Source of the DNA: a virus
DNA length: 31,772 nt
Virus record (IMG/VR): IMGVR_UViG_3300019890_000002
Location: 1-31,772 of that record
Direction: 5' to 3' (one strand)
In this document: positions 1,985 through 23,786 of the stretch, one piece after another
Layout of the letters: every line of letters begins with the position of its first letter
Numbering within the stretch: position 1 is the first letter of the stretch
Position numbers and translations under genes: made by a program
The notes under the pieces: model-generated
What the model saw: only the letters and a program-made list of their open reading frames with translations
Told to the model about the DNA's origin: nothing
Database searches by the model: none

Positions 1985-2142
1985 GCCTCGCTCCTGATCT
2001 TGATGAGGCAGTCGTACTTGCGGAGGTCGGCGTGAACCCAGATCGCGCCGACGAGGGCGATGAGCTGATGTACGCGGATGGGTGATCCGCAGTAGCCGCA
2101 GCAGGTTTCCGAGCGGGCCTTGCGAACCCGGGTTTTAGTCAC
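1981..2142 (-). CDS. Candidate 53-aa Cys-rich protein (VTKTRVRKARSETCCGYCGSPIRVH...)
   Basis: Not in the ORF track. GTG at 2142 overlaps the stop of the rep gene (GTGA) and its own stop overlaps the next ATG (ATGA), so it fills the gap exactly. Confidence 0.45.
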   Translation of the reverse strand: MTKTRVRKARSETCCGYCGSPIRVHQLIALVGAIWVHADLRKYDCLIKIRSEA

Positions 2143-4798: not shown

Positions 4799-6268
4799 TC
4801 AGGCGTTCTCGGGCCACGGGATGACGCGCTCAGTCACGGGCGCTCCGCGGCCTGGCTGCAGGGTCGCGGCCGGCATGATCACCCGCAGCGCGGCCTTCCG
4901 CGCGGCCAGCGTCAGTGAGTTCCAGCGCGCGGCCACGACAGCCTGGGTCTCATCCGGCAGCCCGGACAGCGCACCCGGGAGTGCCGCATCCTTTGCCTTC
5001 GCCTCGGCAGCCTCGGCCTTCGGCTTCAGCGTGGCCGTGACCACTTCCAGCTGCGCCATGTCGATCCGCCCTGCGGCGAAGGATGCCGCCGCCTCGGCCA
5101 TCTGGGTCCGGTAGCCGGCCGCCTCGGTGCTCCAGCGGGCCGCTGCGCTGTCGTCTGCTGAGGTGACCAGCTCCGCCGCGCGGGTGGTGATGAACTCCAC
5201 CGCCAGGCCGTCCAGGTAGGCGTCCGCTTCGGCGCACGGGACCGAGTTGCCGCTGTTGGCCCACCGGCTGCCGCCGTGGTTGGCCGGGCAGTAGTAGTCG
5301 GTCCGGCCGCTGGGCAGCAGGCGTCCCCGGATGATGTCGCCGCAGCTGCCGCAGCGCATGGCGCCTGAGTAGCGGTAGGTCATCCGGGCGGGCCGCTCAC
5401 CTTTGCGTGCCGGGTCGGCCAGCCGGGCGCGGGCCTTCATGCTCTCGCCCTCGGTCACGACACCGAACTGCGCATAGACCGGGTTGCCCGCGATCCTCTG
5501 CACGCTGGCCGGCCACCACTGGCCGCCCTTCGGCGCGGTGATGCCATCAGCGTTCAGCGCTGCGGCGATCGCAGACCAGCCGTCTCCGTCCCCTGCGGCC
5601 AGGATGATGCGGCGGACGGTTGGCGCGTGATCGGGGTGCGGCTCGTCGGCCATCCAGTTCCGCTTGGGCTTGGACGGGTCCCAGCTGCGGACCAGACCCC
5701 ATGCGACGCTGCCCTGTGGCCGGCCAGCCACGCGGCCATCCTCTTTGCCGCTCTTGACGCGCACGCTGATCATCTCCGACTCCATCGCGCTGGCGATGCC
5801 GGCCTCGGCCAGCGCCTTCCAGTCGCGCGCCTTGGTGACGTCGTAGGTGTAGTCCTCGTTGGTGACGTAGATCAGGACCCCGAACCGGCGGCAGGTGTCC
5901 AGTAGCGTGGCCCAGCCGGCCAGCTGGCGGTCACCACGGGAAGACTCCCAGAGCACCAGCACGTCGATCTGCCCATCGGCTATATCGGCCCGCAGCCGCT
6001 GCCAGTCCGCGCGACTGGCGCCGCCTTTGCTGCCGGCGAAGCGCGATGCGCTCAGGCTGTCCGCGTACTCGGTGAGTGCCCAGCCGTGCCGACTGGCAGC
6101 CTCGCGATTGGCCGTGTTCTGGCGCTCGATGCTCTGGTCTCCAGAGGAAACCCGCTGGTAAGCGGCGGCTCTGGCCTGGTCTGTGCTGGTGATCGTGGTC
6201 ATGTCCCCGATCGTATCCCTAACCACACACAGTTCTGACTGCATGTTGTTAGGGATACGTGGTCTCAC
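4799..6268 (-). CDS. int: Large serine recombinase (integrase)
   Basis: N-terminal resolvase motif AAYQRVSSGDQSIERQ, recombinase domain, zinc ribbon CGSCGD...YYCPANHGG, and an Ala-rich coiled-coil C-terminus. Start is ambiguous: GTG 6268 (GGAGG about 11 nt upstream), ATG 6244 or ATG 6202. Confidence 0.9.
   Translation of the reverse strand: MRPRIPNNMQSELCVVRDTIGDMTTITSTDQARAAAYQRVSSGDQSIERQNTANREAASRHGWALTEYADSLSASRFAGSKGGASRADWQRLRADIADGQIDVLVLWESSRGDRQLAGWATLLDTCRRFGVLIYVTNEDYTYDVTKARDWKALAEAGIASAMESEMISVRVKSGKEDGRVAGRPQGSVAWGLVRSWDPSKPKRNWMADEPHPDHAPTVRRIILAAGDGDGWSAIAAALNADGITAPKGGQWWPASVQRIAGNPVYAQFGVVTEGESMKARARLADPARKGERPARMTYRYSGAMRCGSCGDIIRGRLLPSGRTDYYCPANHGGSRWANSGNSVPCAEADAYLDGLAVEFITTRAAELVTSADDSAAARWSTEAAGYRTQMAEAAASFAAGRIDMAQLEVVTATLKPKAEAAEAKAKDAALPGALSGLPDETQAVVAARWNSLTLAARKAALRVIMPAATLQPGRGAPVTERVIPWPENA
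6213..6259. promoter_or_regulatory. 47-bp element with perfect 11-bp inverted arms (GTATCCCTAAC-N25-GTTAGGGATAC): candidate attP core or int operator
   Basis: Read directly from the sequence. It lies at or just upstream of the 5' end of the serine integrase gene. Confidence 0.35.
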
Positions 6269-7855: not shown

Positions 7856-10800
7856 TTACAGGGCGGTTATCGCTGGCTGGTAAAGGTTCACGGATTCGCC
7901 GGCGTTGTGCGGCTTCTGCACGCCGTTGACGCCGCGGCTTACCGTGAACGTCTGCGGCGAGGATGCCCCGTCAATCCCGGTGACTGTCATCCGCTCGCCG
8001 GTGACGATGATGTCGAAGGGAAATTCCCCGGAGTAGCCGGTGCTGTCCACCCACGGCTGGTTCGGTACCGGCGTGTCCACGGCAAAGCTGATGTCGCCGT
8101 TGCCGATGCCGGAGTGCAGCTGGGAGCCGTCCGTGTCAGCCCGGCAGTCCCCGGCCTGGGCGATCTCATACGGGCTCTCTGGCACGCAGTTCATGCTGAG
8201 TGTCCAGGTGTAGGCATTGAGTTCCTCGGTGTAGCCGTAGACCAGCTGCCGGATGTCACCCGGTGGCAGCGGCGCGTCCCCGGTGTTCACCACCTGGAGA
8301 TAGTCGCCGATGTCCGCGTTAACGACGTCAGCGAAGTCCGTGCCGATCTCGGCGCGGGCCAGGTCCACGTAGACGACGGGATACCGGAGCTGGTCCACTG
8401 TGCCGATGAACGTAATCCAGCTGGCCAGGTCTTCGAGCTGCTCGTCGCTGTCCACGTTGATGCTCTGGCTGAAGGTGTACGGGCCGACGCCGGCGGGCGG
8501 GTCCTGGATCGAGAGCGTCCCGGACGTCACCTGGAACTCTGCGGAGGAACCGCTGGGCCGGCTGATCGTGACGTCGTTGCGGAGCAGCTGGTCATCATCA
8601 GTGGGCTGCAGCGGGAAGCCCAGCTCGCCAGCGCCGTAGTCGAGTTGCATGGCCGCCGCCTGGGCGTACAGGCTGCTGCGGGTCCGGTAGGCCATGCCGA
8701 GAGCGTCACGGGTCTCGAAGATCAGCCCGCGGTCAGCATCCTCGCAGTCCTGCAGGATCTGGGGCACCTTCACTGGCAGCTGGGGCCCGACCAGTGCAGT
8801 GGTGTCAGTCACGCCGGCGTCGATCACCGAGAAGGGAATGTTCTGCTCGGTGCAGATCCGGGTGAACCGCTGCGACGCGGTCTCGCCGGCGTAGGCGGCC
8901 AGCGGGCCAGCGAGGCTGGTGACCGGATCGTAGCCACTCTCCTGGATGGCAGCATGTGCCCAGGTAGCACTGGCCATGTCCCCGTTGGGGTCCATGATCA
9001 CCACGAAGGCGTCACCGAGGGTGGCCGCAGTGAGTGTGCCAGACGAGGTGGCTGCTGCCACCGTCTGCCCGGCGAAGATACCGGTCAGGGTGTAGGCGAT
9101 GTTGCTGCCTGAGGGTGTCAGCTCAGCCGAGACGAGCAGGTACTGGTTATCGCAGCCGAAGGCGACTTCCCCGGTGGTGAACAGCTGCGCACCAGCGCCA
9201 CTGAAGCCGGAGAGGGTGAGGCTGCCCGCGTTCGCCACGTTGTAGATCACCTGGATGTAGGCGATCGTGCCGGTGGTCTCCATCTGCGCGACCACGCCAC
9301 CATCGGTGTCGCCGCCGTCCGGGGTGTGCAGGACGAAGCGCAGCACATTCGCCGCCGTCGTGCTGGACCCGCTGCCAGCCGGTGCGTAGGACAGGGTGAT
9401 CAGGCCCTGGGCGCCAGCAGCAGCATTCCCGAGCGAGTCGTACCCACCTCCGCCGCCACCGGGAGTGGAGGACGGTGCCGCCATAAACGAGCTGCCTGCG
9501 AGAGTCCCGCCGCCCGGACCACCGCCGGTGACAGCAGCTCCGCCAAGCTCAACGTCGCCATCGTTGCCAGCCGAAGCGCTCCCGCCGGAGGACCCGCCAC
9601 CGCCGCCGATGCCTGCGTCCGGCGGGTCCATGGTCACCGTCTCGGACCAGAACAGCCACACCTTCCCGCGGCCACCGCCACCGCCGCTGGGGGTCGCGCC
9701 AAACTGCCTCGTATACGCCCCGCCACCGCCGGCACCGGTCGGGGCGCCATCGGCGCCATTGCGCGCCCCCTGGGCCGAGGAGCCGCCGTCACCGCCGTGG
9801 CCGCCGCCGTTGATGGTGCCGTTGCCGGAGCCGCCATTACCGCCAGCGCCGCCGCCGGCCGAGTCGGTGCCGTTGCCGCCACCGCCGTCGATAGAGGCCC
9901 CGCCGCCACCACCGCCGCCCTTGTTGCCGGTGGTCCCGGAACCGCCGTGCCCGCCGGAGTGCGTATTGCCCGAGCCGCCACTGCCGGTGGTGCCAGCCGC
10001 ATGACCGGGCTGGCCGCCGTCCGCCTGGATGGTGCCGGAGCTGTTGAAGTAGCTCTGGCCGCCTACGGTGCCCTCGCCGCCGGAGGCTCCGCCAGCGCCG
10101 CCCTGGCCCACCTTGACTGGGTAGTTGCTGCCGCCGCTGACTGAGTGGCTGCCCTGGCTGAAGCCGCCGCCGCCGCCACCGCCGCCACCGCTGCTGGAAC
10201 CACCACCTCCACCGCCGCCGCCGGCTCCCCAGACGTAGGCCGTCACGGTGCCGTCGATATCCGCAGGCGCGTTGAACGTGGCGTCCGAGGTGTAGGCCAG
10301 ATTCTGCTGGGTGGTGTTGCTGCTGCCGCCGCCTCCGGGACCGCCGGAGCCTGCCGCACCAGCGCCACCGTCAAAGTGGGTGGCAGCCGTGCTCCCGGTG
10401 CCTCCTGCCCCGCCGGTGGCGCCGTCTGAGCTGCCTGCGGTGCCACCGTGCGCGGTGATGGACGTGGAACTGTCGCCATGCATGACGGAACTACCGCCGC
10501 TGACGCCAGCCGAGGACGCACCGACCGTGTAGCTGTAGGAATTGCCAGGAGTGACTGCCAGGCTTCCGGAGGCGTACTCGCTGCCACCACCACCAGCACC
10601 GCCCGTGTTGCCGTTGTAGCCAGAGCCGCCGCCGCCGGCACCCCATGCCTGCACCAGCACCGAGGTGATATCCGGCGGGGCGATCCAGGTATGGGTGCCG
10701 GTCGTGGACAGCACCGTGGTCTGGGCCACCGGCAGCGCACCGGCGATACCCGTTGCGCCGGTGAACGTGGCGCCGTTGAACGACGGGAACGGGCTGGACG

Positions 10801-12385
10801 CTGGCAGCCCGGAATCACTGGCCAGCGACGGTGCGCCCGAGAACGTCATCGGGAAGCCGGTCGTCAGGCCCGAGCTGAGGCTGGTGGCCGCACTGCCATC
10901 CTCAGCGGGCCAGTAAGCCAGCGGCGGGGCAGCCAGCGTCTGGTAGTACCGGAACAGCGCGGACCGCAGGGCAGCGTTCTGGTTGAGCCGCCGCAGGATG
11001 CCGTTCGCAGTGATCTGGACAGTGATGTCCTGGCCGGTGTTATCCCAGGTGGGCGGCCACTCGGCGACCTCACCCCAGAACCGGTATGACAGCGGCGACG
11101 GGATAACCGCGGTGGGCGCGGACACTCGCAGCTGCGTGTTCCGGCCGATGAGCAGATAGTAGGGAGAAGCCGGGTTGCGTGGTGAGAACCGGCCGTCACG
11201 GTTGTTCAGCGTGAACGTGCACGTCGCCGGGTTGACTGTCGCGGATTCGTCAGGCCGTCCGCGCACGATCGTGATCGTCTGCCGCTGGTAGACGAAGTCA
11301 GTGATGTCAGTCCACGTGTCACCGACGAGTAGCTCGAACAGCAGAATCAGTGGCTGCGCCGGGAACGGGAATCCCTGGAAGATCCGGCCGGCCAGCACCG
11401 GTGTGCGGACGCCTGCTGAGCCGCTGATGACGAGCGACTGGGTACCGGTGCCCGACAGTGCCGCCTTGGGGAGCACCAGGTGACCGCCGGTCAGGGCCAG
11501 CCCGGTCCCGGATATCCCCATCTTCGGGAGCGCTGCCGACCCGGTGCTCGTATTGGGGGGAATCCAGCTGATCGCCAGCGACGAGCTGGATGCCACGCTG
11601 ATCGTGTAGGCGGTCCCCGCGACGACACTCTCGGTGCTGGTACTGGTGTGCCCGTCGAAGGATGCGGTCCCGCTGATCGTCCATGAGGCCGAGGTGATCC
11701 CGCTGGGCGCGGTCCACTGGTACGTGCCGCCGGTGGTGCTCGCTGAGATCGTGGCCGTGCTCGCCATCGTCCAGGTGATGACGACCTGACCGGCTTTGCC
11801 GGCGGCAGCGTTCGAGCCGGAGACGCCGCCAGCACCACCACCCGGGGCCGAGCCTGCGGTCTGGGCGTTGCCGCCAGCGGCGCCGCCGGTGACTGCGACA
11901 GCACCAGCCCCGCCGCTGGCTCCGGTGCTGCCCGCATTGCCAGCCGCAGCGGTCCCGCCCGAGCCACCGCCACCACCGCCGGTAGTGCCGTTCCCGTTGC
12001 CGCCAGCCCCCCCGTTGTGGTGCGTGGTGTTGGTGCTGCCAGTCCCGCCAGCGCCACCAGTCTGGGAGCCTGTCCCGTTTGCCGTGCCGCCGTGGGCGGT
12101 GACGGCCGGCGAACCGCCGGTGACAGTGGAGCTTGCACTGGTTCCGGTGGTCCCGGCAATTGAGGCGGCACCAACGACGACGGTGTAAGAGTTCCCGGCC
12201 GTGACCGCCAGGGCCGGCTCAGCGGCGTACTCACCACCACCGCCGCCGCCCAGGCCGGAACCTGCAGCTACCGAGGGAGCTCCGGAACCCCAGCACTCGA
12301 CTTGCGCAGCCGTCACCCCGGCCGGGCAGACCCAGGTGAACGTGCCGGCGGTGGTGAACTTCGCGGTGAACGTCGCGTTGGCCAT
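7856..12385 (-). CDS. Giant tail protein (1509 aa): Dit-like (siphovirus tail family) core with three glycine-rich modules
   Basis: Follows the tape measure with a 1-nt overlap. Core motifs are GDTWTDITDFVYQRQTITIVRGRPDE...FTLNNRDGRFSPRNP (N part) and LQDCEDADRGLIFETRDALGMAYRTRSSLY...FDIIVTGERMTVTG...FTVSRGVNGV (C part). Gly-rich modules begin TFTWVCPAGVT..VECWGSG, THTWIAPPDIT..VQAWGAGGGG and TFNAPADIDG..AYVWGAGGGG. Confidence 0.8.
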   Translation of the reverse strand: MANATFTAKFTTAGTFTWVCPAGVTAAQVECWGSGAPSVAAGSGLGGGGGGEYAAEPALAVTAGNSYTVVVGAASIAGTTGTSASSTVTGGSPAVTAHGGTANGTGSQTGGAGGTGSTNTTHHNGGAGGNGNGTTGGGGGGSGGTAAAGNAGSTGASGGAGAVAVTGGAAGGNAQTAGSAPGGGAGGVSGSNAAAGKAGQVVITWTMASTATISASTTGGTYQWTAPSGITSASWTISGTASFDGHTSTSTESVVAGTAYTISVASSSSLAISWIPPNTSTGSAALPKMGISGTGLALTGGHLVLPKAALSGTGTQSLVISGSAGVRTPVLAGRIFQGFPFPAQPLILLFELLVGDTWTDITDFVYQRQTITIVRGRPDESATVNPATCTFTLNNRDGRFSPRNPASPYYLLIGRNTQLRVSAPTAVIPSPLSYRFWGEVAEWPPTWDNTGQDITVQITANGILRRLNQNAALRSALFRYYQTLAAPPLAYWPAEDGSAATSLSSGLTTGFPMTFSGAPSLASDSGLPASSPFPSFNGATFTGATGIAGALPVAQTTVLSTTGTHTWIAPPDITSVLVQAWGAGGGGSGYNGNTGGAGGGGSEYASGSLAVTPGNSYSYTVGASSAGVSGGSSVMHGDSSTSITAHGGTAGSSDGATGGAGGTGSTAATHFDGGAGAAGSGGPGGGGSSNTTQQNLAYTSDATFNAPADIDGTVTAYVWGAGGGGGGGGSSSGGGGGGGGGFSQGSHSVSGGSNYPVKVGQGGAGGASGGEGTVGGQSYFNSSGTIQADGGQPGHAAGTTGSGGSGNTHSGGHGGSGTTGNKGGGGGGGASIDGGGGNGTDSAGGGAGGNGGSGNGTINGGGHGGDGGSSAQGARNGADGAPTGAGGGGAYTRQFGATPSGGGGGRGKVWLFWSETVTMDPPDAGIGGGGGSSGGSASAGNDGDVELGGAAVTGGGPGGGTLAGSSFMAAPSSTPGGGGGGYDSLGNAAAGAQGLITLSYAPAGSGSSTTAANVLRFVLHTPDGGDTDGGVVAQMETTGTIAYIQVIYNVANAGSLTLSGFSGAGAQLFTTGEVAFGCDNQYLLVSAELTPSGSNIAYTLTGIFAGQTVAAATSSGTLTAATLGDAFVVIMDPNGDMASATWAHAAIQESGYDPVTSLAGPLAAYAGETASQRFTRICTEQNIPFSVIDAGVTDTTALVGPQLPVKVPQILQDCEDADRGLIFETRDALGMAYRTRSSLYAQAAAMQLDYGAGELGFPLQPTDDDQLLRNDVTISRPSGSSAEFQVTSGTLSIQDPPAGVGPYTFSQSINVDSDEQLEDLASWITFIGTVDQLRYPVVYVDLARAEIGTDFADVVNADIGDYLQVVNTGDAPLPPGDIRQLVYGYTEELNAYTWTLSMNCVPESPYEIAQAGDCRADTDGSQLHSGIGNGDISFAVDTPVPNQPWVDSTGYSGEFPFDIIVTGERMTVTGIDGASSPQTFTVSRGVNGVQKPHNAGESVNLYQPAITAL

Positions 12386-14829
12386 CAGTTCCGCCCGAAT
12401 GCCTGCTGGACGTTGCCCCCGCCCTGGACCCGGGCGAACTTCCGGATGGTGGTCAGCATGAACTGCTCGAAGGCGCTCTGGCCGGAGGAGTCGAAGCTGA
12501 CCGTGACGTTCGTGCCGGCGCCGGTGCTCATCATCCGCTCGGTGTCAGGATTGGAGTGCACGGTCGAGCCGCCGGGCAGCCGGATCAGCTCTCGGCCATG
12601 CTCACCAACCATGGCCAGTCCGGTGCCGGTGCCGCCCGCGGCGTAACCACCGGGCTGCAGCATCACCGACGCGAGAGAACGTCCCCGGTAGCCGGGAGAG
12701 TTGACCGCGTAGTTCAGCCCGGCGAAGATGTTCGCCATCGGGTTGTAGATGCTGTTCGGCAGTGAATCTGAGCGGTACGCCTCGAACGTCGTCATGATCG
12801 TCTGCATAAGCCCGCGGGACGGGTCGCCGTGCTGGGCGTTGATGTCGGTGAGGTTGATCGCGTTCGGGTTACCGCCGCTCTCCTGCATCATGCGGTGCTC
12901 GACCGCACCCAGGTTGGAGCTGGACTGGCCCAGCATGGCCAGCGCCTTGAGGATGTCGGGAGCCCACTGGGTGACCCCAGCACCGAAGCTGCCCGTGTAC
13001 TTGCTGCCACTGCCACTGGCCGCCTTGCTGGCAGCCAGTTTCACCTGCGCCGCCTTGTTCGCATCGTGCGCCTTGTTCGCGGAGCGCTTGATGCCCTTCT
13101 CCAGGCCGAGCATCAGGTTGTCACCGATCTCCGCGAACACCGAGGACGGCGACAGGACACCCCAGATCTTCTTGACCACGTTGACGATCGTCTTGCCGAA
13201 GTTGGAGAACCAGCTCTCAATGTCGCCGCCGACCCGCTTGAACGCGTTCCACATCTCGTTCAGCGCGGCGGACGCGAAGCTGCCCAGCGAGTGGCCGAGG
13301 CCGGTGAGGGCGCCGACCAGCTTGGACGGCATCCCCTTGAAGAAAGAGACGATGTTGCCCCAGACACTCTTCACGGTCGAGAACATCTGGTTCCAGGCGC
13401 TGCTCAGGAACGACTTCACCGAGTTAGCAGCCGAGGTGATCGCGGACTTGATGTTGTTCCACACGGACTTGATGAAGCTCAGGATGGAGTTCCAGGCGCT
13501 CTTCACTGCGTTAGTGATGGCGTTCCAGGCGCTGGACAGGGTGCTCTTCACCGAGTTGACGTCTGAGCTGACCGTCGACTTGATGTTGTTCCAGACGCTC
13601 TTGAAGAACGAGAGGACGGCATTCCAGGTGCTCTTCACCGTGTTGCTGATGGCGTTCCAGGCGGAGGAGAGCGTGTTCTTCATCGAGCTGACGTCCGAGC
13701 TGACGTCGGACTTAATGCTGTTCCAGATGGACTTGAAGAAGCCGAGTATGTCGTTCCAGATCTTCTTGATGGAGCTGTAGATGTCGTTGTGGTACTTCAT
13801 GATCACGCCGGACGGCCCGAGCAGGAGCGGCCACCACTGCTTGGCGAAGCTGAGGATGTTGTCCCAGGTCGTCTTGATGAAGTTGTAGACGTCACCCCAG
13901 ATCTTCTTGACCGTGTCCCAGATCTGGTTGTGGTACTTGATGATCAGGAGGGCCAGCACGACCAGGGCGGCAGCGACCGCGACGAACGGGTTGGCCAGCA
14001 TGGTGGCAAACGTCTCCGCCATGCCGAGCTTGAAGACCAGCAGTGCTCCAGTGGCGAGCCCCAGTGCGAGGGGCAGCAGGTGGAACTTCGAGAGCATGTC
14101 CACGATCACCAGGGAGACCTTCGCGCCGATCACGAGGATCGGGGTCAGCGCGGCGACCATCTGGACGAACGCGGGGGCCAGTTGCGCGAGGAGCTTGATC
14201 CCGGTCGGCCCCACGTCCATGAAGATCTGCATCAGGACCTTCAGGAGGCCCACCAGGGCCGGCCCGAGGATCTGGGATGCCTGGACTGCGAGCTTGGCCA
14301 TCATGTCCGCGAACTGCTTGAAGAACGGGCTGGCGACCAGTCCCAGCAGCGGCGCCAGGAACGCGGAGATGGAACTCGCGCCTGCCTTGGCGAGGATCTG
14401 GAGGGACGGCATCAGGCTCTGGAGGATGACCCCGCCGAACTTGACCAGGTACAGGATGGCCGGCTCGATGGCCTTGCTGGCCTGCTCGAAGCTGGTCTTA
14501 ATCCCCTCGATGGCCTTCGCGATACCCGTCTGGGTCGGGTCGAGCTGCGCCCATGCCTTCTTGCCGGCCGCGCCCGTGGAGGTGACCGCCTTCTCCACCT
14601 TGCTGAAGGTGGGCGCTGCCAGCGCACCGAAGGCGCCGACGGCAAGGGTGAGGCCGCCCAGCGGGGCGGCCATGGCGGTGAGGGAAGACCCGAGCGCGAT
14701 AATCCCGGCGCCCTGGCCGATGCCGGCCATCGACTTCTTCAGGTCTTCGCTGTTGGCCTTCGCCTCAGCGAAAGCTTGCTTTGTGTTGTCCTTCGCCTTG
14801 ACCAGGATTTCCACGACATTACTGGCCAT
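12385..14829 (-). CDS. Tape measure protein with C-terminal lytic transglycosylase (SLT) domain
   Basis: 814 aa. Long hydrophobic/helical centre and Trp/Phe-periodic 44-aa tandem repeats. SLT signature MMQESGGNPNAINLTD...GLMQTIMTTFEAYR...YNPMANIFAGLNY. Lies downstream of the G/GT chaperones. Confidence 0.9.
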   Translation of the reverse strand: MASNVVEILVKAKDNTKQAFAEAKANSEDLKKSMAGIGQGAGIIALGSSLTAMAAPLGGLTLAVGAFGALAAPTFSKVEKAVTSTGAAGKKAWAQLDPTQTGIAKAIEGIKTSFEQASKAIEPAILYLVKFGGVILQSLMPSLQILAKAGASSISAFLAPLLGLVASPFFKQFADMMAKLAVQASQILGPALVGLLKVLMQIFMDVGPTGIKLLAQLAPAFVQMVAALTPILVIGAKVSLVIVDMLSKFHLLPLALGLATGALLVFKLGMAETFATMLANPFVAVAAALVVLALLIIKYHNQIWDTVKKIWGDVYNFIKTTWDNILSFAKQWWPLLLGPSGVIMKYHNDIYSSIKKIWNDILGFFKSIWNSIKSDVSSDVSSMKNTLSSAWNAISNTVKSTWNAVLSFFKSVWNNIKSTVSSDVNSVKSTLSSAWNAITNAVKSAWNSILSFIKSVWNNIKSAITSAANSVKSFLSSAWNQMFSTVKSVWGNIVSFFKGMPSKLVGALTGLGHSLGSFASAALNEMWNAFKRVGGDIESWFSNFGKTIVNVVKKIWGVLSPSSVFAEIGDNLMLGLEKGIKRSANKAHDANKAAQVKLAASKAASGSGSKYTGSFGAGVTQWAPDILKALAMLGQSSSNLGAVEHRMMQESGGNPNAINLTDINAQHGDPSRGLMQTIMTTFEAYRSDSLPNSIYNPMANIFAGLNYAVNSPGYRGRSLASVMLQPGGYAAGGTGTGLAMVGEHGRELIRLPGGSTVHSNPDTERMMSTGAGTNVTVSFDSSGQSAFEQFMLTTIRKFARVQGGGNVQQAFGRN
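13333..13779 (-). repeat. In-frame tandem repeats (about 132 nt / 44 aa, roughly 3.5 copies) within the tape measure
   Basis: LSSAWNAI(S/T)N.VKS.WN..LSF.KSVWNNIKS...S..NSVKS. is repeated. Confidence 0.8.
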
Positions 14830-15369
14830 CCGGTGCTTCCCTCCTTCCCAGATCCACGATCCGCAGCAGCCGCAGGATCTCCGCGTCTTCTTCCATCAAC
14901 TGGCTGGGCAGGCAGTGAAACCGCTCACATAGCCCAATAATGGTTTGCGCTTCAGTCAGCTCACCAGGCTCGGCGACAAGCTCGCCATCGGCAGTGACGC
15001 CTCCGGGAAAGTCGCGCCATTGCTCGACGGCATGGGCAAAGGGGGCCTCACCGAGGCCATGGCTTCCATCCACGCAGTGATGATGGCCAGCACGAAGTCG
15101 AACTCCTGGCCCTGGATGCCGTCGTAGTCCGCTGGTACCGGGCGCCCTTTCTCGTCTTCCAGATTCCAGGACACCAGCGACTTGGCGAACTCCCGGAATA
15201 GCTGCTCAGCCTGCGCGGCCACGCCAGCCATATTTTCCGCACCCTCGGTGAGGCTGGACATCTTGAAAAACTCACCGAGGGGGAGCGAGCGGGCCAGCAC
15301 TTCGAGGCCCGCCAGGTCCGGGTCCTCGAACTTCAGCTTGTAGATTTTCCGTTCGCGCCGGAATCCCAT
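14819..15369 (-). CDS. Tail assembly chaperone GT fusion via -1 programmed frameshift
   Basis: The 84-aa ORF (14819-15073) is in the -1 frame relative to G. Slippery heptamers C_CCT_TTG (15043-15037) or T_TTC_CCG (15010-15004) lie in the overlap. Confidence 0.6.
14956..15369 (-). CDS. Tail assembly chaperone G
   Basis: ATG 15369 with GGAGGG 6 nt upstream. KLKFEDPDLAGLEVLARSLPLGEF is typical of actinophage tail chaperones. Position is immediately upstream of the tape measure. Confidence 0.7.
   Translation of the reverse strand: MGFRRERKIYKLKFEDPDLAGLEVLARSLPLGEFFKMSSLTEGAENMAGVAAQAEQLFREFAKSLVSWNLEDEKGRPVPADYDGIQGQEFDFVLAIITAWMEAMASVRPPLPMPSSNGATFPEASLPMASLSPSLVS
15037..15043 (-). promoter_or_regulatory. 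Candidate X_XXY_YYZ slippery heptamer CCCTTTG for the G/GT frameshift
   Basis: In the G frame the codons are CCT TTG. After a -1 slip they become CCC TTT. Confidence 0.45.
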
Positions 15370-15456: not shown

Positions 15457-15879
15457 TTAGCTCCAGGTGGGGACGTTCCCGTCGGCGAGCACGCCGGGGA
15501 CGGCCCATGTCAGCTCGCCGGACGCGGCCCGGGTTAGCGGGTAGTCGGTGTACAGGCAGTTGACGCCGCCGGAGCTGGCGGAGTCGTTCAGCGTCTGCGA
15601 ATTGACTACCAGCGTGGTGAGCCGGGCCACCGACGTGGACGGGACGGTCTTGAACACGGGGTGCGAGACCGCCGAGTTGAATACGCCGTTGAGGGTGACG
15701 GAAAAGTCGGCGAGCAGCAGCAGCCGCTCGTTTGCGGACTTGTCCACACCGGTGACGTCCTGGACGGCCCGCGGGGTGGAGAACGACAGGTTTGTCACGT
15801 CATTCTTGATGACGGTCGGCGAGGCGCTGGCGTCACTCACGGTGAGAGTCGTCCAGCCCAGGCCCGATGCCTTTGCCAT
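15457..15879 (-). CDS. Tail-tube-like protein (140 aa), paralog of the N-terminal half of the 241-aa protein
   Basis: QDVTGVDKSANERLLLLADFSVTLNGVFN aligns with LDVTGIKSFATERIGGLRSGDLQFTSWFN of the 241-aa protein. Confidence 0.6.
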   Translation of the reverse strand: MAKASGLGWTTLTVSDASASPTVIKNDVTNLSFSTPRAVQDVTGVDKSANERLLLLADFSVTLNGVFNSAVSHPVFKTVPSTSVARLTTLVVNSQTLNDSASSGGVNCLYTDYPLTRAASGELTWAVPGVLADGNVPTWS

Positions 15880-16348: not shown

Positions 16349-17074
16349 TCAGAAATCCACCTTCACCGTGTTGCGGGCGAACATCACTGCGAATGTCGCC
16401 GAGGTGAAGGTGCCGGAGGTGACGACCTCGATGTAGCGGTCCACCGTCCCGGTCACCGCGACCCGCTGGGCACCCGCAGTGGTCGCCGCGGTGAAGGCGA
16501 TCAGGTCGGTGAACGTGCTGTTGTCCGTCGAGTGCCGCACCTTCACCGTCACCGAGGTCCCGGTGATCGCAGTCACCTGCAGGTAAGCCTGGGCACCGAA
16601 GGAAGTGCCGGCCGCCTCGTCTTTCGAGGTATGGGTCGTCGCCGTGGTGTCAGTGATCAGGCCGGCGGTGAGCAGCTCGCCCCACTCCAGGCCGTACGAG
16701 TTCGACTGGACTTCGATCTTGAAGGACAGCGAGCCGTCCGCACCGCGGGTCGGGTCATAGTTCAGCTGCTTGCCATTGATACTGAACGCCGGGTTGCCGA
16801 TGGCAGGTGAGGCGAAATAGCCGGACCCGATGACGTCCGTGGCAGGCAGGGTTTTCAGCACGGCGTGCTCCTGTCCCGTGCCGATGTTGAACCACGAGGT
16901 GAACTGCAGGTCACCGCTGCGCAGGCCGCCGATGCGCTCGGTGGCGAACGACTTGATGCCGGTCACGTCCAGTGGAGCCGGACCGCCGGAGATGGAGTCC
17001 AGGGAGCCGACGTCGCCGGACAGGTCGTGCCCGCTGATCAGGAACGTCGCACCGAGGCCGGACTGCTTACTCAT
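16349..17074 (-). CDS. Major tail (tube) protein candidate (241 aa)
   Basis: Position between the neck genes and the chaperones. Thr/Ser/Gly-rich beta-type sequence. Has a paralog at 15457-15879. Confidence 0.6.
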   Translation of the reverse strand: MSKQSGLGATFLISGHDLSGDVGSLDSISGGPAPLDVTGIKSFATERIGGLRSGDLQFTSWFNIGTGQEHAVLKTLPATDVIGSGYFASPAIGNPAFSINGKQLNYDPTRGADGSLSFKIEVQSNSYGLEWGELLTAGLITDTTATTHTSKDEAAGTSFGAQAYLQVTAITGTSVTVKVRHSTDNSTFTDLIAFTAATTAGAQRVAVTGTVDRYIEVVTSGTFTSATFAVMFARNTVKVDF

Positions 17075-17958: not shown

Positions 17959-19014
17959 TCACACGACCCGCACCCGGGACTTGCGCCCATAGCGGGCGCA
18001 GGCGCGGGCCTGAAGGTCAGCCAGGCCAGCGCCAGAAGCGTTACGCGTGGTATCGCCGGTGCCCACGGTGCGCGCGTAGCCGGAGGTCTTCTGCAGCACC
18101 GTGTTCTCGGCCAGGGCGACAGCCAGCTCGGTGATCAGCGGCGGGGGGACATGCCGGGAGACCGCAGCCGCTGAACTGTGCGGCGCCGCGGTGGTGCCCA
18201 GTGCGCCACGGGCGGCAGACAGCTGCCGGTTCGCATAGATCGTGCCCGAGGTGTGCGCGGTGAGGATCGTGCCTTCCCAGGCGCGCTTGACGACCAGGGC
18301 GCCGCCGGTCGTGTCGCTGATGTACATCCGTTCAGCGTCGAGGAGCAGCACCTCGCCGGGACTGAACACGGTGACGTCAGGGACCGCGACCAGGTTGTCG
18401 TTCGCCTGCGCGGTAGCGGGCCCGGTGAAGCTCACCCCGGTGCTGACCATGGCCCGGTCTGTGACGAGCAGCCGCTCAGAGCCGATGAGCAGGACGTCAC
18501 CCACGCCGGCCCGGGAGCCGTCTGTAACGGTGATCGTGGTGTCGTCGTCGGCCGCATCAGCGGACAGCGCACCAGCTGGGGCAGCCTGCGCGGTGTAGCC
18601 CCAGGTGCCGGTGATCGCCACGTCATGCTGGGGGGTGGGACCTGAACCGAACGCCGCGTTTGTGGAACGGTCCAGCTCCATGTAGACGTACGGCTCGTTA
18701 GCTTCCTTATCCACCGGCTCGAAGAAAATGTCGTCCAGCGGGATCGTCACGCCCCCGGTGGTGACCAGTGTCGCCACGATCAGGTCGTACTGCTCGAACC
18801 AGATACGCCACGGGTAGGCACCCTGGAAGTTGGGCCAGTCGAAATACTTGATGCCGTCTTCCGGATAGAACCGGCGGTGCAGGATGCCGTAGATGTCGTT
18901 CGCGGCGGCCTGGATGGCGTTGTCCACCAATGAGATCGAGCGCTGCGTGGGATGAAAATCCAGCGCCAGCATCACTTCATCCCGCGTGCAATAGCACGGC
19001 GAACTAACCGCCAT
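17959..19014 (-). CDS. Head-tail adaptor-like protein with a large insertion (351 aa)
   Basis: N-terminal YCTRDEVMLAL is typical of gp6-like connectors. Synteny also supports the call. Confidence 0.45.
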   Translation of the reverse strand: MAVSSPCYCTRDEVMLALDFHPTQRSISLVDNAIQAAANDIYGILHRRFYPEDGIKYFDWPNFQGAYPWRIWFEQYDLIVATLVTTGGVTIPLDDIFFEPVDKEANEPYVYMELDRSTNAAFGSGPTPQHDVAITGTWGYTAQAAPAGALSADAADDDTTITVTDGSRAGVGDVLLIGSERLLVTDRAMVSTGVSFTGPATAQANDNLVAVPDVTVFSPGEVLLLDAERMYISDTTGGALVVKRAWEGTILTAHTSGTIYANRQLSAARGALGTTAAPHSSAAAVSRHVPPPLITELAVALAENTVLQKTSGYARTVGTGDTTRNASGAGLADLQARACARYGRKSRVRVV

Positions 19015-19131: not shown

Positions 19132-19434
19132 TCAGAGGGCGGCTGGTTCCACCTCCCAGGAGTCCACCCCGATGGCCTGCACAGTCCCGGTGCCGGTCCA
19201 TTCGACGATCCATAGCTGTCTCGCCGGGCCGGCCCAGCCGCTGGTGTCCAGATCAGCGTGATACGCGCCGGTGCCGTCTTTCACGATTGGCGAGTCGGGA
19301 TAGGTGACGGTGGTGGTGTCCCCCGCGTCGGCCTTGTACTGGAGCACCACCGAACTGGGGTCGGCGGGAGTCCCGCTGGTGTCGGTGTACGCAGCCGAGC
19401 TGCGGATCAGTGAACCGGACATGTATGTGTTCAT
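19132..19434 (-). CDS. Hypothetical protein (100 aa), Ig-like beta composition
   Basis: ATGA overlap with the upstream 885-aa gene. Confidence 0.6.
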   Translation of the reverse strand: MNTYMSGSLIRSSAAYTDTSGTPADPSSVVLQYKADAGDTTTVTYPDSPIVKDGTGAYHADLDTSGWAGPARQLWIVEWTGTGTVQAIGVDSWEVEPAAL

Positions 19435-22088
19435 AGCGCGCTCCCTACCAGTACGTGCTCGACGAGGGCTGAGGTGACGGTGACCTTCGCGGCGGTGTTG
19501 CTGACCTGCACTTGCCTGAGAAGAACGGACGTGACGGTCACTTCCGCGGCGGTGTTACTGAGCTGAACGGCGCTGGGCTGCGCGTGGGTGACGGTGACAG
19601 CCCCTGGGGTCTGTATCTCGGAGCCGCTCACTGTTATGGCGGGCAGCGCCAGGCTGCCCGCAGCGGTGACCGGCGCGATGACTGCGGCGGTGGCCGCCAG
19701 GGTGCTGTGCGGGAGGGTCAGGCTGCCGGCAGCCGTGCTTGTCTCAGTGGCCGTGCCAGCCAGGCCGGGGACGGCCACAGCCACTGAACCTGCGGCGGTG
19801 CTCGTCTCAGTAACGGTGACTGCCAGCGCGCTGTGCGGGAGGGCGACGGAGCCAGCGGAGGTGTTCTCCATGCTGGCCACGCCAGCCAGGCCCGCTGCGG
19901 AGAGCGCCGTCGAGCCGGCGGACGTGGACTCTTCAGCGGCTGCGCCAGAGAGACCCGCAGCGGGGAGCGCGAGGGAGCCAGCAGCCGTGGATTCTTCGGT
20001 GGCGCTCCCCGACATGGCCGTGGCAGGCACGGCCATCAAGCCTTCAATGCTCCCCGCCGGGGTTTCGGTGGCCGTGCCCAGCAGGCTGACCGCCGGCAGC
20101 GCCGCGCTGCCAGAGCTGGTGGACTCTTCAGTGGCGCTGCCGGCCAAGGTGCCTGCAGGCAGCGCGATGGAGCCAGAGCCGCCGGGGGTGGTAGCCGTTG
20201 CCGTGCCGGCCAGGGTGGTGACGGGGAGGGCCGCTGAACCGGCAGCCGTGGACTCTTCGCTGGCGTCCCCTGACAGGCCCGCAGCGGGCAGCGCCAGGGA
20301 ACCTGCGGACGTGGACTTCTCGGTGGCGGTCCCGGACATCACGGTCCGCGGGAGCGCGATGGAGCCGGCGCACGACGACGAGGACGCTGCCCCGGACAGC
20401 CCTCCTGCGTGCAGTGCGGCGCTGCCGGTGGATGTGGATGCCTCAGTAGCAGCGCCGGTGAGGGCACCTGCGCGGAGGGCGAGACCGCCTGAACATGACG
20501 AGGACGAGCCAGTCCCCGACGTGGCGGTCCGCGGGAGCGCCAGGCTCCCCGTGGCCTTGGTCGTCTCGGTGACGGTGACAGCGAGGCTGTAGCGCCGCGT
20601 AGCCGTAGATCCGGTGGATGTGGACTTTTCAACGGCGGCGGCGCTGATGCCGTAGCGCCGGACCGCGGCCGACCCGGTGGACGTGGTCGCCTCGGTGACG
20701 GTGCCCGCGATACCGGCCTTCGGGAGCGCCACGGAGCCGGTGGAGGTGTTAGACGTCGTCGCCAGCTTGATGACGGCGATACAGGCGGCACCGTTAGCGT
20801 CCGCAGAAGGAGTCCACGAGCAGGTGACGCCACCGCTGCTCGTGTTCATGCTGGCGACACCGACGTCCTGGAAACTGTTCCCGTCGATGGACGCGGCGGT
20901 GTTCTTGACGAACCCGGCACCCGCTACCGTCCATGTCGCTGATGCCCAGTCCGCGATCAGGCAGAGGGCCAGCTCGCCTGCCCCGGCGACAGCGGACGTG
21001 GTGCCCGCGCTGACGTTCTCGATGCCTTCCCCGGGTGGGGTGGCTGCGACGGACACGTCGAGGCAGCCGCTGCCCGCGGAGGCGTCCAGTCCGCTGTATT
21101 CAGCCGCGGTCCAGCCGTATTCCGAAGGACTTGGCGTCGCCCCGGCGACGGTGATCGTCAGCGTGCCGGTACTGGTAGCGACGGCGGTCCAGATGTCACC
21201 GTAAATGTTGTCGGCGACGATGCTATTACTGATCAATTTCGTATAGAGATTGCCCTGCGAGTCGGTCACCGAGCTGACGTCGCCACTGCCGAAGTTGCTG
21301 CCGGTGAAAACGAAGACCCTGTTCCCGCTGGTGACGCTCGACCCGAATGTGGCGGCTATGGTCGCCGTTGTGCTCGGGGTGGACTTCAGGGACTGCGCCA
21401 GCGCCCAGGCCGGCGTTACTGGCGGGGAGACCACGAGAATGAGCGCCGACTCGGTCGTGGACGTGCCGTGCGCCAGGGCAACGCTGAGCGTGCTGCCGGA
21501 CGAGGGTGCGGACGAGTCCCAGAACACGGCCATCTGGGACCGGGCCGAGGCGGTCTGGTTGGTGGTGCACGCGGTCCACCCGGACGGCGTGGTCCAGGTG
21601 ATCGTGGCAGCGGTGGTGCCGTGGCCGCAGACAATCCCGGCGAGCGCGAAGCAGCCGCCGGACGGCACGTTCATGGTGGTCGCGGGAGACAGGGTGCCGG
21701 TCGTGCCGGTTGCGGTGCCGTCCGTCGCGGCCACCGGGGTGCCACCGCCGCTGTCGGACAGCACGAACATGACACAGGCGATGGTGGCGTCCGCCGCGGT
21801 CCCAGTTTCAGTCCCGTTGAAGACGGGGGCGGTGTCAGTGCCCGCCGCGACCTTCGTGTAGTACGCGGTGACGTCCCGGCTGGAACCGGTGACCGACTGG
21901 ATCAGTGTCCACCCGGATGGGGCCGCACCGAGTACCCCCGTGGTCGTGCCGTACACCGTGACCACGCCGACGAGCAGGTTCCCCGCGGTGCGGGTCTGCC
22001 CGGTGCCCCACGTTGCAGTGACCGTCTGCGTCGTGGTGGTGAACGCCGCCGACGCGACAGCAGGCGTGCCGACCGAGGAGACGGTCAT
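19431..22088 (-). CDS. 885-aa repeat protein: two roughly 220-aa N-terminal domains plus about 18 tandem 21-aa Ser/Thr/Ala/Gly repeats
   Basis: Continuous GC3-rich ORF with RBS GGGAGGTGAG. Repeat unit is T-S-x-G-S-x-A-L-P-x-x-G-L-x-G-x-A-T-E-x-S. Confidence 0.8.
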   Translation of the reverse strand: MTVSSVGTPAVASAAFTTTTQTVTATWGTGQTRTAGNLLVGVVTVYGTTTGVLGAAPSGWTLIQSVTGSSRDVTAYYTKVAAGTDTAPVFNGTETGTAADATIACVMFVLSDSGGGTPVAATDGTATGTTGTLSPATTMNVPSGGCFALAGIVCGHGTTAATITWTTPSGWTACTTNQTASARSQMAVFWDSSAPSSGSTLSVALAHGTSTTESALILVVSPPVTPAWALAQSLKSTPSTTATIAATFGSSVTSGNRVFVFTGSNFGSGDVSSVTDSQGNLYTKLISNSIVADNIYGDIWTAVATSTGTLTITVAGATPSPSEYGWTAAEYSGLDASAGSGCLDVSVAATPPGEGIENVSAGTTSAVAGAGELALCLIADWASATWTVAGAGFVKNTAASIDGNSFQDVGVASMNTSSGGVTCSWTPSADANGAACIAVIKLATTSNTSTGSVALPKAGIAGTVTEATTSTGSAAVRRYGISAAAVEKSTSTGSTATRRYSLAVTVTETTKATGSLALPRTATSGTGSSSSCSGGLALRAGALTGAATEASTSTGSAALHAGGLSGAASSSSCAGSIALPRTVMSGTATEKSTSAGSLALPAAGLSGDASEESTAAGSAALPVTTLAGTATATTPGGSGSIALPAGTLAGSATEESTSSGSAALPAVSLLGTATETPAGSIEGLMAVPATAMSGSATEESTAAGSLALPAAGLSGAAAEESTSAGSTALSAAGLAGVASMENTSAGSVALPHSALAVTVTETSTAAGSVAVAVPGLAGTATETSTAAGSLTLPHSTLAATAAVIAPVTAAGSLALPAITVSGSEIQTPGAVTVTHAQPSAVQLSNTAAEVTVTSVLLRQVQVSNTAAKVTVTSALVEHVLVGSAL
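19614..20750 (-). repeat. About 18 in-frame tandem repeats of roughly 63 nt (21 aa)
   Basis: GS.ALP units begin at aa 451, 472, 493, 514, 534, 555, 575, 596, 617, 639, 660, 679, 704, 725, 746, 767, 788 and 811 of the 885-aa protein. Confidence 0.85.
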
Positions 22089-22115
22089 GACTCACCTCCC
22101 AGAGGCGAGCCCCGA

Positions 22116-22526
22116 TTAGCTCTGCAACTGCGTGATCGTGAAACTGGAGCAGGACACCGTCGCACCGGAGCTGATCGTCAGCGAGTTCAGGTTCAGGTCA
22201 GCAGCCGAGGTGCCCACCGAACCGGTCGCCACCACCGTGGAATCGTCGGTCTTCACCAGCGCGAAATATCCGGCGGTGCCACCGACGGCGCTCGTGTCCG
22301 AGGTAATCGAGTTCGCTGTCGCGGTGACCGTCCCGGCCGAAGCGCTGGACGCGCCAAACGCGGTCGAGCCGAACGTCAGTTTCGCGATCTTCGTTCCGGT
22401 CAGCGACCCGTCCACCGCAGGCTGCCCGCCGGAGTAGATCTCCAGGAAGCCGGAGTTCAGCAGCGTGGCGATAGCGTCAAGATTGGTCTTCAGCTGCGTC
22501 TGGTAAAACTTCGGGGCATTAGCCAT
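22116..22526 (-). CDS. Hypothetical virion-associated protein (136 aa)
   Basis: GC3-rich ORF in the capsid-proximal island. Ser/Thr/Ala/Gly-rich. Confidence 0.6.
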   Translation of the reverse strand: MANAPKFYQTQLKTNLDAIATLLNSGFLEIYSGGQPAVDGSLTGTKIAKLTFGSTAFGASSASAGTVTATANSITSDTSAVGGTAGYFALVKTDDSTVVATGSVGTSAADLNLNSLTISSGATVSCSSFTITQLQS

Positions 22527-22737: not shown

Positions 22738-23100
22738 TCAGCCCGCCTTGTCCCGGTTCGCGTACGCGTCGAGAACCAGCTGGGGGAGCTTGCCCCGGGC
22801 CGCTACCTCAAGGCCCTGGTCCGCGGCCCAGGCGCGGACCGCAGCAGTAGGCGAGTCGTCCTCAGGCTGCTCCGCCTCCGGCGCAGGAAGGCTGACGCCG
22901 CCGCTGGCCGTCACCCCGGAATCCTCAGCTTCCGGCGCGTCCTGCGCTGCCCAGCGGTTGCTGGTACCACCGCTCGTGGCCTTCGGCATTTCACGCTCCT
23001 TTCCGCACATTGGGCACCGGGTCAGGGCAGAAGCGATGGCCAGGCAGCCGCAGCTGTCACAGGTCCACATCTGATACCCCCACGACGATTGCCATGTCAC
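22738..23100 (-). CDS. Zinc-ribbon / Lsr2-type DNA-binding-domain fusion protein (120 aa)
   Basis: N-terminus CDSCGC...CPMCG, an acidic linker, then C-terminus AAVRAWAADQGLEVAARGKLPQLVLDAYANR. This matches the Lsr2 C-domain pattern (IREWA...G..VS.RGRIP..V..AY). GTGA overlap with the GT gene. Confidence 0.65.
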   Translation of the reverse strand: MTWQSSWGYQMWTCDSCGCLAIASALTRCPMCGKEREMPKATSGGTSNRWAAQDAPEAEDSGVTASGGVSLPAPEAEQPEDDSPTAAVRAWAADQGLEVAARGKLPQLVLDAYANRDKAG

Positions 23101-23786
23101 AAGGTCACCACCTTCGCGTGACCCACCCTCACTTCACTGGCGACATGAATTGGAACGCCGGCCCGCGCCGCCTTACGGCAGAACGACAGGTCCTCGCCAT
23201 ACGAGATCCCGTCGTCCGTTTCCTCACTGAACGGGGCCGGCCCGACCGCCTCGAACGCCGAGCGGTGGATGAGCACGCACCCGGTGCCCACTGCCGCGAC
23301 TTTCTGCACCGGGTCCATGGGCGTCTTCACGCTCCACGGGATCAGCTGCCCGAAATGGTCGGTGTAAGCCGCCCAGTGCAGCGAGGGCCATTCCCCCACC
23401 GGGTGCATACCGGGGTCGTGGGCCACCACGGGGACGGCGGCAGCGAGGATGGGGCGCCTCGCCGGGTCGGCGAGGCGCAGCAGTGCAGGCAGCGTCTCCG
23501 GGCCGAACACGGTGTCGCTGTCGGTGAACCACAGCCATTCCTGCTGGCTGGCCATGAGTGCCGAGGCTGCCGCGTTCCTGGTTACTGACAGGTTCGGCCC
23601 GGACGGCTGGTCGAGGAACGACCCCAGCAGTGCGGCGTTGTCGCTGGTGAGCATGGCGATCACCGACGACATGAACGCAGCCCGCACGTCCTCACCGTGC
23701 AGCCACGCCCAGAAGACGGTACCTGAGCGCAGCGAAGCCTCCCTGGCCGCCGCAGCGGACGGGGAGACTTCGGCCACGATTGTCAT
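23097..23786 (-). CDS. GT-A fold (family 2-like) glycosyltransferase
   Basis: DxD motif in LWFTDSDTVF. Also GTGCVLIHRSAFE and YGEDLSFCRKAARAGVPIHV...VGH. Confidence 0.75.
   Translation of the reverse strand: MTIVAEVSPSAAAAREASLRSGTVFWAWLHGEDVRAAFMSSVIAMLTSDNAALLGSFLDQPSGPNLSVTRNAAASALMASQQEWLWFTDSDTVFGPETLPALLRLADPARRPILAAAVPVVAHDPGMHPVGEWPSLHWAAYTDHFGQLIPWSVKTPMDPVQKVAAVGTGCVLIHRSAFEAVGPAPFSEETDDGISYGEDLSFCRKAARAGVPIHVASEVRVGHAKVVTL

Follow-up and report, generated by a model that had tools for sequence, protein, structure and literature searches.

An 885-aa protein with 18 tandem 21-aa units as a candidate optional whisker of a Streptomyces-type siphovirus

The viral DNA record IMGVR_UViG_3300019890_000002 (positions 1 to 31,772; this whole stretch of 31,772 nucleotides is referred to as the window) was found to contain an open reading frame (ORF) of 885 aa in which two beta-sandwich domains (D1 and D2) are followed by 18 tandem units of about 21 aa and by a short C-terminal module. 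The protein is read, with a probability of roughly 0.5, as an optional, modular, fibre-like appendage ('whisker') mounted on the head or neck of a temperate, Streptomyces-type siphovirus. The 21-aa unit would be a lineage-specific linker or stalk module, 18 of which in tandem would form a shaft holding D1-D2 off the particle. D1-D2 would probably be modules that bind cell-wall glycans and so would provide accessory, avidity-based adsorption, and one end of the protein would dock at the head-neck junction, most likely via the C-terminal module and the adaptor-associated domain of p100, the product of the adjoining gene. Such a whisker would act like the lactococcal collar-whisker, or neck passage structure (NPS). 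The locus is most likely an undescribed variant of a familiar virion decoration and not an unstable DNA repeat.

The repeat array and its use as a linker

The ORF starts with ATG and is preceded by a Shine-Dalgarno sequence (Table 1); its G+C content at third codon positions (GC3) was found to be 0.83, on par with the adjoining genes, and its stop overlaps the start of p100 by 4 nt (ATGA). Together with the ORF list and the translation, these signals bear out the 885-aa ORF of a preliminary description made from the sequence alone, and the roughly 18 tandem 21-aa units that it had placed at aa 447-825 were recovered with coordinates correct within 6 nt. The array was found to contain 18 units with lengths of 20-23 aa, the length being exactly 21 aa in 13 of them, with the consensus S-T-S-A-G-S-L-A-L-P-A-A-G-L-S-G-T-A-T-E-E. 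Gly5 and Ala8 were found to be invariant, followed by the strongly preferred Ser6, Leu9, Pro10, Leu14, Gly16, Ala18 and Glu20, and Gly13 and Leu7 were also among the conserved positions. Every unit scored E <= 3e-5 with a profile built from the 18 units. The residue identity at lag 21 was 0.367, against a mean of 0.176 +/- 0.009 for the maximum over all lags in 2000 shuffles (z = 21), and autocorrelation peaks were found at 21, 42 and 63 only, with no period-3 signal in the array of the kind expected for a collagen-like Gly-X-Y fibre. Ser and Thr together made up 32% of the repeat region.

The same description had taken the array for long, almost perfect 63-nt DNA repeats prone to copy-number change, and at the DNA level neither part of that claim was upheld. 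Tandem Repeats Finder, run over 19.4-22.1 kb down to score 30, reported no tandem repeat; the DNA identity between units was 55% on average and 76% at most, and the longest exact repeat was 16 nt. The inter-unit identity at codon positions 1, 2 and 3 was found to be 0.58, 0.63 and 0.43, against random expectations of 0.32, 0.37 and 0.36, so that the third positions are near random, and the same codon was used at identical residues in just 42% of cases. Unit similarity showed no decay with distance along the array. On this sequence pattern the units are regarded as old duplications maintained by selection at the peptide level, and the predicted copy-number instability does not fit DNA copies so old and diverged. 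Slippage or mis-assembly is unlikely, since the copies are diverged and the longest exact repeat is short; a slippage-prone, contingency-type DNA locus was ruled out by the repeat search, the 55% identity and the near-random third positions, which removes the unstable-repeat lead for the locus. The sole sizeable DNA tandem repeat in the window was found elsewhere, in the tape measure gene (132 nt, 2.5 copies, 78% matches, 13431-13759).

Structures were predicted with AlphaFold2 (AF2) as monomers and in two pieces, one being D1 and the other comprising D2, the repeats and the C-terminus. The predicted local distance difference test (pLDDT) score of the array was 27-58, with short strands at a spacing of 21 residues in part of the model, and aa 447-885 contained short strands only and zero helices (AF2 and DSSP). 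The low-confidence model of D2 and the repeats found no PDB match with Foldseek, and the protein did not match the Pfam Beta_helix model. In a monomeric beta-solenoid (pectate-lyase-like or left-handed beta-helix), by comparison, each repeat of 18-22 aa makes up one stacked coil.

When the unit profile was run on every window ORF of at least 60 aa, the 1509-aa tail protein was the only one matched besides the 885-aa protein (next best ORF, E = 0.4). A first copy was found at aa 278-294 (E = 7e-6), followed by a partial second copy at aa 305-316 (E 0.11), which confirms the earlier claim that the motif recurs in this protein. The tail protein was found to contain an N-terminal Gly-rich domain of the Gly_rich_2 type (aa 1-277), the two units, a Dit-like core, a very Gly-rich region and a conserved C-terminal region (phrog_5313), in this order, so that the unit pair sits exactly between the Gly-rich domain and the Dit core. 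The first tail copy matches unit 1 of the array at 14 of 18 aa, yet only at 36 of 54 nt, and for this reason is not taken as a recent DNA transfer. The motif was absent from all 39 of the 39 Dit-core homologs, nearly all of which start 12-50 residues ahead of the W-x-D-I-T core motif, and the tail protein of Streptomyces phage Dagobah, the nearest isolate, also begins at the Dit core, without the motif-bearing N-terminal extension. The N-terminal 320 aa of the 1509-aa protein are therefore regarded as an add-on.

The same use of the unit was found at one related locus, L023, where five unit sites lie between the globular domains of an 1824-aa tail protein and two lie at the N-terminus of a Dit-like protein; one or two copies per site separate the globular domains. 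Across 3461 ORFs from 23 loci, nothing beyond these two L023 proteins was matched by the unit profile. The placement in the tail protein and in L023 marks the unit as a modular inter-domain connector in this lineage.

Several domains resembling D1/D2 were also found in the 1824-aa tail protein of L023 (6398-11872), along with LamG-like repeats and an E-I-D-x-x-E motif of the GH16 type. The gene for this protein ends in an ATGA overlap with the gene for the Dit-like protein (11869-14910), the protein that opens with two units. The correspondence of these L023 parts to one fused ORF in the window suggests, from the sequences compared, gene fission or fusion at the linker.

The D1 family and its genomic setting

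No match of the 885-aa protein was found in Pfam, PHROG or NCBIfam, and hence no Ig-like or FN3 decoration domain (Hoc, Big_2 or FN3-type); nothing was found by megablast or tblastn against 50,697 GenBank phage records. A scan of a genome collection returned a single weak Chloroflexota match and gave no host assignment. The D1 model was of high confidence (pLDDT 91.7; predicted template modelling score 0.91). A Foldseek search of it against PDB gave noise only (template modelling score, TM, <= 0.29), with no BppU entry among the matches listed, and profile searches of PDB sequences with D1 and D2 returned nothing. In BFVD, many phage proteins were found at TM 0.6-0.75, some of them from Mycobacterium and Gordonia phages and annotated as minor tail proteins.

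D1 and D2 had been described as two paralogous domains of about 220 aa. Pairwise BLASTP showed no similarity between them (E = 12), whereas their family profiles aligned end to end over 192 columns (hhalign, E = 4.9e-5, probability 68%), MAFFT co-aligned the two coherently, and the predicted strand orders nearly coincide; a distant paralogy is thus plausible at the profile level. D2 was modelled at pLDDT 55-94, and its homologs (271 matches in an alignment search) were found to include the proteins P0008/9 and P0011-16. D2-type domains abound in secreted proteins of actinobacteria, together with FN3 and Kelch/galactose-oxidase-like domains. The conserved residues of D1 and D2 are chiefly Gly, Pro and Trp, so that nothing points to an enzyme. 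The C-terminal module of 58 aa was modelled as beta-hairpins (pLDDT 62-73) and is kept in the orthologs of the metagenomic loci L007 and L008 and in P0271.

The D2-like domains of P0020-P0136 belong to a large family of secreted actinobacterial proteins of about 250 aa with signal peptides, a family that Pfam does not appear to cover with a dedicated model. Repeated copies of these domains were also seen in proteins that contain FN3 and Kelch/galactose-oxidase-like (DUF1929) domains.

The D1 profile search returned 467 clusters at 50% identity, 86 of them with E <= 1e-30, and the family is unannotated, with no Pfam, PHROG, NCBIfam or PDB representative, and is known only from metagenomes. The D1 of the window was the top match over the full length of the profile (E = 2.6e-89, profile positions 1-225), and the protein is 46-54% identical to P0002-P0010. 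D1 nearly always occupies residues 1-225 of the family proteins, the lengths of which range from 145 to 1923 aa. Long tandem arrays with a period of 17-22 aa, or double that, were found in 43 of the 109 members of at least 400 aa; others end in an SGNH esterase (e.g. P0015), a pectate-lyase beta-helix (e.g. P0006) or a Spherulin4 domain. The unit profile matched only the query among 158 family proteins, and reciprocal unit profiles from other members gave no match in the window. Because the unit profiles fail reciprocally, only a common architecture and period, and no homology, is claimed for the family arrays; the arrays of P0193, P0241, P0221, P0210, P0159 and P0206, considered as variants of one motif, were rejected by profile searches both ways.

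The loci L007 and L008 were found to have about 50% identity to the window over the head and tail proteins and the same gene order. D1 is 38-41% identical among the three, and the last 58 aa or so match at E ~1e-8. The L008 array contains about 24 units of the type 'GANVTGVAA.VTVAGG.GT.SG' and the L007 array contains basic Arg/Pro/Trp-rich units, both unrelated to the window array once composition is controlled. The window and L008 arrays seemed to share 29% identity over 481 aa, a similarity that was rejected as compositional, since residue shuffles and unit-column permutations scored alike (corrected E = 60). No homolog of the GT2-family glycosyltransferase that is encoded two genes upstream of the 885-aa protein was found in L007 or L008. 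The corresponding slot of GT2 and p136, upstream of the D1 gene, is occupied there by a Ser/Gly/Gln-rich low-complexity ORF of about 140 aa (9229-9669 in L007 and 4220-4630 in L008).

The four-gene block GT2-p136-885-aa protein-p100 sits between the capsid genes and a predicted head-tail adaptor. Dagobah (capsid protein 43% identical) is syntenic, yet lacks all four genes, which makes the block optional. In 10 of the 11 interpretable loci the D1 gene was found in the head module: after the capsid gene in the window, L002, L006, L007, L008 and L019, between the portal and capsid genes in L010, between the terminase and portal genes in L011 and L003, and directly before the connector protein in L004. 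Only in L023 was it found in the tail module.

A stand-alone p100 gene was found directly after the D1 gene in the window, L007, L008, L010 and L018, and thus accompanies that gene in L010 as well, where the slot is another one. In other loci the p100 domain was found as the N-terminus of adaptor-like proteins of the gp6 type of about 300 aa (L004, 9969-10922; L020/21, 5798-6787 in L020; L012, 18871-19839; L022, 7944-8834; L026, 7400-8284). These fusions are encoded directly after the D1 gene in L004 and L020/21 and within a few kb of it in L012/13, L022 and L026, and the L004 fusion protein was also found to contain a Phage_connect_2 domain.

The whisker reading, its rivals and known systems

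Of the three explanations that the preliminary description had offered for the shared motif, a common fibre or stalk element was found to fit best, given the linker placement in the tail protein and in L023, although the fold of the array was not confidently predicted. The layout of the family, in which a constant D1 is followed by an array, an esterase, a beta-helix or a Spherulin4 domain, matches the logic of virion fibres and spikes and supports a whisker. The placement at the head or neck follows from the position of the D1 gene in the head module and from the fusion of the p100 domain elsewhere to gp6-type adaptors.

Several points weigh against this reading. The presence of the protein in virions is suggested by sequence and gene context, and so is the stalk, because the monomer model of the array is of low confidence; aa 447-827 could, going by that model, be flexible or disordered. 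Either end of the protein may dock: the constant N-terminal part of fibres is usually the anchor, which would make D1, the part kept at the N-terminus throughout the family, a candidate anchor, yet D1/D2-like domains were also found at internal positions, as binding modules are, both in the tail protein of L023 and in secreted proteins of cells. No carbohydrate-binding fold or site in D1 or D2 was found by the PDB profile searches or by Foldseek. The family member of L023 lies in the tail module, so that the head/neck placement is not universal, and the assignment of p351 as the adaptor follows a sequence pattern, with no significant family match.

If the whisker reading is true, the large family of 467 clusters has its domains mapped, p100 named as its conserved partner gene and a likely site on the virion assigned. 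A single phage lineage would draw on one short peptide unit for two purposes, linking domains with 1-2 copies and building a shaft from 18, a concrete example of the modular construction of virion decorations, and the recurring pairing of fibre and glycosyltransferase genes in actinophages would bear on host range and on immune recognition in phage therapy. It is doubtful that the D1 family as a whole forms an undescribed class of head/neck whiskers with a fast-turnover shaft, in which a cassette of repeats of about 20 residues is exchanged for unrelated repeats even from one sister phage to another while the termini and p100 are kept, the shaft being O-glycosylated here by GT2 as a virus-encoded 'mucin' shield or adhesin.

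A rather unlikely rival, compatible with the stalk reading, is that the units are a common modification target, the Ser/Thr-rich units of both proteins being O-glycosylated by GT2 into a mucin-like glycan brush that would shield them from protease or antibody. A glycosyltransferase (GT) gene does lie within the structural block, in the same optional four-gene block as the 885-aa protein, and the repeat region is rich in Ser and Thr. A 38%-identical GT2 was found upstream of the D1 gene in L004, with an apiosidase-like enzyme and a GT1 nearby; GT1 and methyltransferase genes adjoin the D1-family genes in L001, L002 and L012, and an RGP/GT75 gene lies on the P0002 contig. No obvious alternative GT2 target, in the form of Ser/Thr-rich tails on the capsid or tail-tube proteins of the window, was seen. 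Against this, L007 and L008 have D1 genes with arrays and lack a homolog of GT2, other family arrays are not Ser/Thr-rich (Gly/Val/Ala units in L008 and basic units in L007), and the conserved unit positions are Gly, Ala, Leu and Pro more than Ser or Thr.

The placement of GT genes, in relatives also with methyltransferase genes, among the structural genes resembles the glycosylation cassettes known in mycobacteriophages of clusters O, F and C (Freeman et al. 2023, as cited in PMC11600133 and PMC12582341). Phage-encoded O-methyltransferase and GT cassettes glycosylate virion proteins in cluster O (PMC11600133, citing Freeman 2023); the documented targets are capsid and tail-tube subunits, not fibres, and the 885-aa protein would be a putative further target.

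Anchoring on the capsomers, perhaps with p150 or p136, would make the protein a head fibre or decoration comparable to gp8.5 of phi29 or to the vertex fibres of 7-7-1 and phiCbK, which is considered unlikely. The gene follows those of the major capsid protein and the conserved p150, the family gene lies among the terminase, portal and capsid genes in L010, L011 and L003, and 7-7-1 has capsid fibres of a still unassigned protein (PMC12796354). The tight recurrent coupling, however, is to p100, which is adaptor-fused elsewhere, and not to capsid or decoration genes, and the solved relatives of p136 come from a tail-fibre assembly and not from a capsid.

Improbable is a shared docking interface, in which the units would be beta-strand elements that pair with the two unit copies of the Dit-containing tail protein and the 885-aa protein would, in spite of where its gene lies, be a side fibre attached to the baseplate; this suggestion of the preliminary description received no direct support. 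The confinement of the motif to these two proteins within the window would agree with it, as would the D1-family protein of L023, whose tail-module gene immediately precedes that of the Dit-like protein opening with two units, and the annotation of BFVD fold neighbours of D1 as minor tail proteins. However, 18 copies are far beyond the need of a docking site, the L007 and L008 orthologs lack the unit yet retain the gene, the slot and p100, and at most loci the gene is in the head module and coupled to an adaptor-associated domain; the L023 units between the domains of one chain behave as linkers.

An assembly artefact or a non-structural low-complexity ORF is hardly credible: repeat-rich regions in metagenomes can mis-assemble and the contig is a singleton, but with no exact repeat above 16 nt and units that differ by about 45% in DNA a collapse or expansion is implausible, the codon-position pattern and GC3 show selection on the reading frame, and orthologs with the same ends were found on independent contigs.

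Among known systems, the whisker reading is closest to the NPS proteins of lactococcal phages of the 936 and P335 groups, which are optional, contain 500-900 aa and have a conserved N-terminal beta-sandwich of about 180 aa followed by a fibre (PMC6669499). Their distal ends are variable (a carbohydrate-binding module (CBM), a beta-helix of the pectin/alginate-lyase type or a carbohydrate esterase), and they are dispensable and occur in some two thirds of the 936-group phages (PMC6669499). The 885-aa protein would resemble them as an optional decoration with a constant N-terminal beta-sandwich, linked to head and connector genes, and in the swappable distal modules of its family, in which a beta-helix (P0006) or an SGNH esterase (P0015) ends the protein. 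Unlike in NPS proteins, in which a BppU-like N-terminal domain forms the collar ring, neither the sequence nor the fold of D1 was found to match BppU, the shaft would be a repeat of 18 x 21 aa, of beta type or modelled at low confidence, and not a trimeric alpha-helical coiled coil, and the globular domains are N-terminal, with a tiny beta module as the C-terminus; the NPS sits at the head-tail junction, and the placement of the 885-aa protein is predicted from its gene neighbours. Going by these sequence and model comparisons, the protein is not considered a member of the NPS family.

Minor tail proteins of actinophages (Mycobacterium phages Hawkeye, Shauna1, PP, Gaia, Tweety and Myrna and Gordonia phage GodonK) share the D1 fold in BFVD (TM 0.5-0.75, probability 1.0) and actinobacterial hosts; they differ in that the identity is 14-20%, their genes are annotated in tail modules and none was reported with a 21-aa array. 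The unit pair of the tail protein, which tethers an extra module to a core protein, is similar to the evolved Dit, TpeX and CBM decorations of siphophage tails, whereas the added module precedes the Dit core and is Gly-rich (Pfam Gly_rich_2), unlike the inserted BppA-type CBM of an evolved Dit. The array itself resembles repeat-built fibre shafts (adenovirus and reovirus, phi29 gp8.5, 7-7-1 and phiCbK capsid fibres) in its short tandem repeat, Gly/Pro turns and alternating hydrophobic residues. The triple beta-spiral of adenovirus and reovirus has a repeat of 15-16 residues with a fixed hydrophobic pattern and a Gly/Pro turn and folds only as a trimer. The array differs from such shafts in its period of 21 and not 15-16 and in the lack of a helix-turn-helix pattern, and it was modelled as a monomer only.

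Neighbouring genes of the window

The genes on the minus strand were found in the order portal, ClpP-type protease, HK97-fold capsid protein, p150, GT2, p136, 885-aa protein, p100, p351, p149, p157, major tail protein, p150b, p140, p160, tape measure protein and 1509-aa tail protein, by which the window is recognised, at the level of sequence, as a siphovirus structural module. Genes for a serine recombinase and an AAA_25/HTH protein were also found (Table 1), so that the virus is taken as a temperate phage or prophage. With 31813 bases, the contig exceeds the 31772 of the window only slightly.

Table 1. Features of the window around and including the 885-aa protein
Feature	Position	Strand	Remarks
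AAA_25/HTH protein	2139-3323	-	downstream of the tail genes
Large serine recombinase/integrase (Resolvase and Recombinase domains)	4799-6268		downstream of the tail genes
1509-aa tail protein	7856..12385	-	Pfam Gly_rich_2, phrog_5313; homologous to L023 and Dagobah tail proteins
Two unit copies NTSTGSAALPKMGISGTG ... TGGHLVLPKAALSGTG, tail protein aa 278-316	11438..11554	-	unit profile
p351, predicted head-tail adaptor with C-terminal extension	17959..19014	-	kept in L007, L008 and Dagobah
p100, 100 aa, adaptor-associated domain	19132..19434	-	start overlaps the stop of the 885-aa ORF
885-aa ORF	19431..22088	-	ATG start
C-terminal 58-aa beta-hairpin module, aa 828-885	19434..19607	-	alignment and profile search, AF2
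18 tandem units of about 21 aa, aa 447-827	19608..20750	-	unit table, profile matches, shuffles
D2, aa 224-446, plausible distant D1 paralog	20751..21419	-	hhalign, alignment search, AF2
D1, aa 1-223, all-beta domain of unannotated family	21420..22088	-	AF2, BFVD, D1 profile
Shine-Dalgarno sequence GGGAGGTG	22093..22100	-	4-5 nt 5' of the ATG of the 885-aa ORF; read from 22089-22116
p136, small virion structural protein directly upstream of the 885-aa ORF	22116..22526	-	phrog_3758, E = 1e-20
GT2-family glycosyltransferase, in optional block	23097..23786	-	Pfam Glyco_tranf_2_3 2e-8, phrog_34859

The protein p136 was found to match two PDB chains, 44nx_B (E = 4e-8) and 9rkv_A (E = 5e-4), both labelled 'structural protein'. 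The latter is a 141-aa chain of the tail-fibre model of the flagellotropic phage 7-7-1 and is probably, judged by its size, the fibre-decorating 'garland' protein of that phage. The protein p351 was probably a head-tail adaptor by its N-terminal sequence pattern; in Pfam it matched the K1-lyase Rider domain only, and no BLAST similarity was found between it and the adaptor part of the p100-adaptor fusions.

Two smaller observations concern p140 (15457-15879), which was found to resemble the N-terminal 120 aa of the major tail protein (16349-17074, minus strand) at about 30% identity (tblastn against L007 and L008). A p140-like gene was found to be duplicated in tandem in L023 (736-1137 and 1177-1575).

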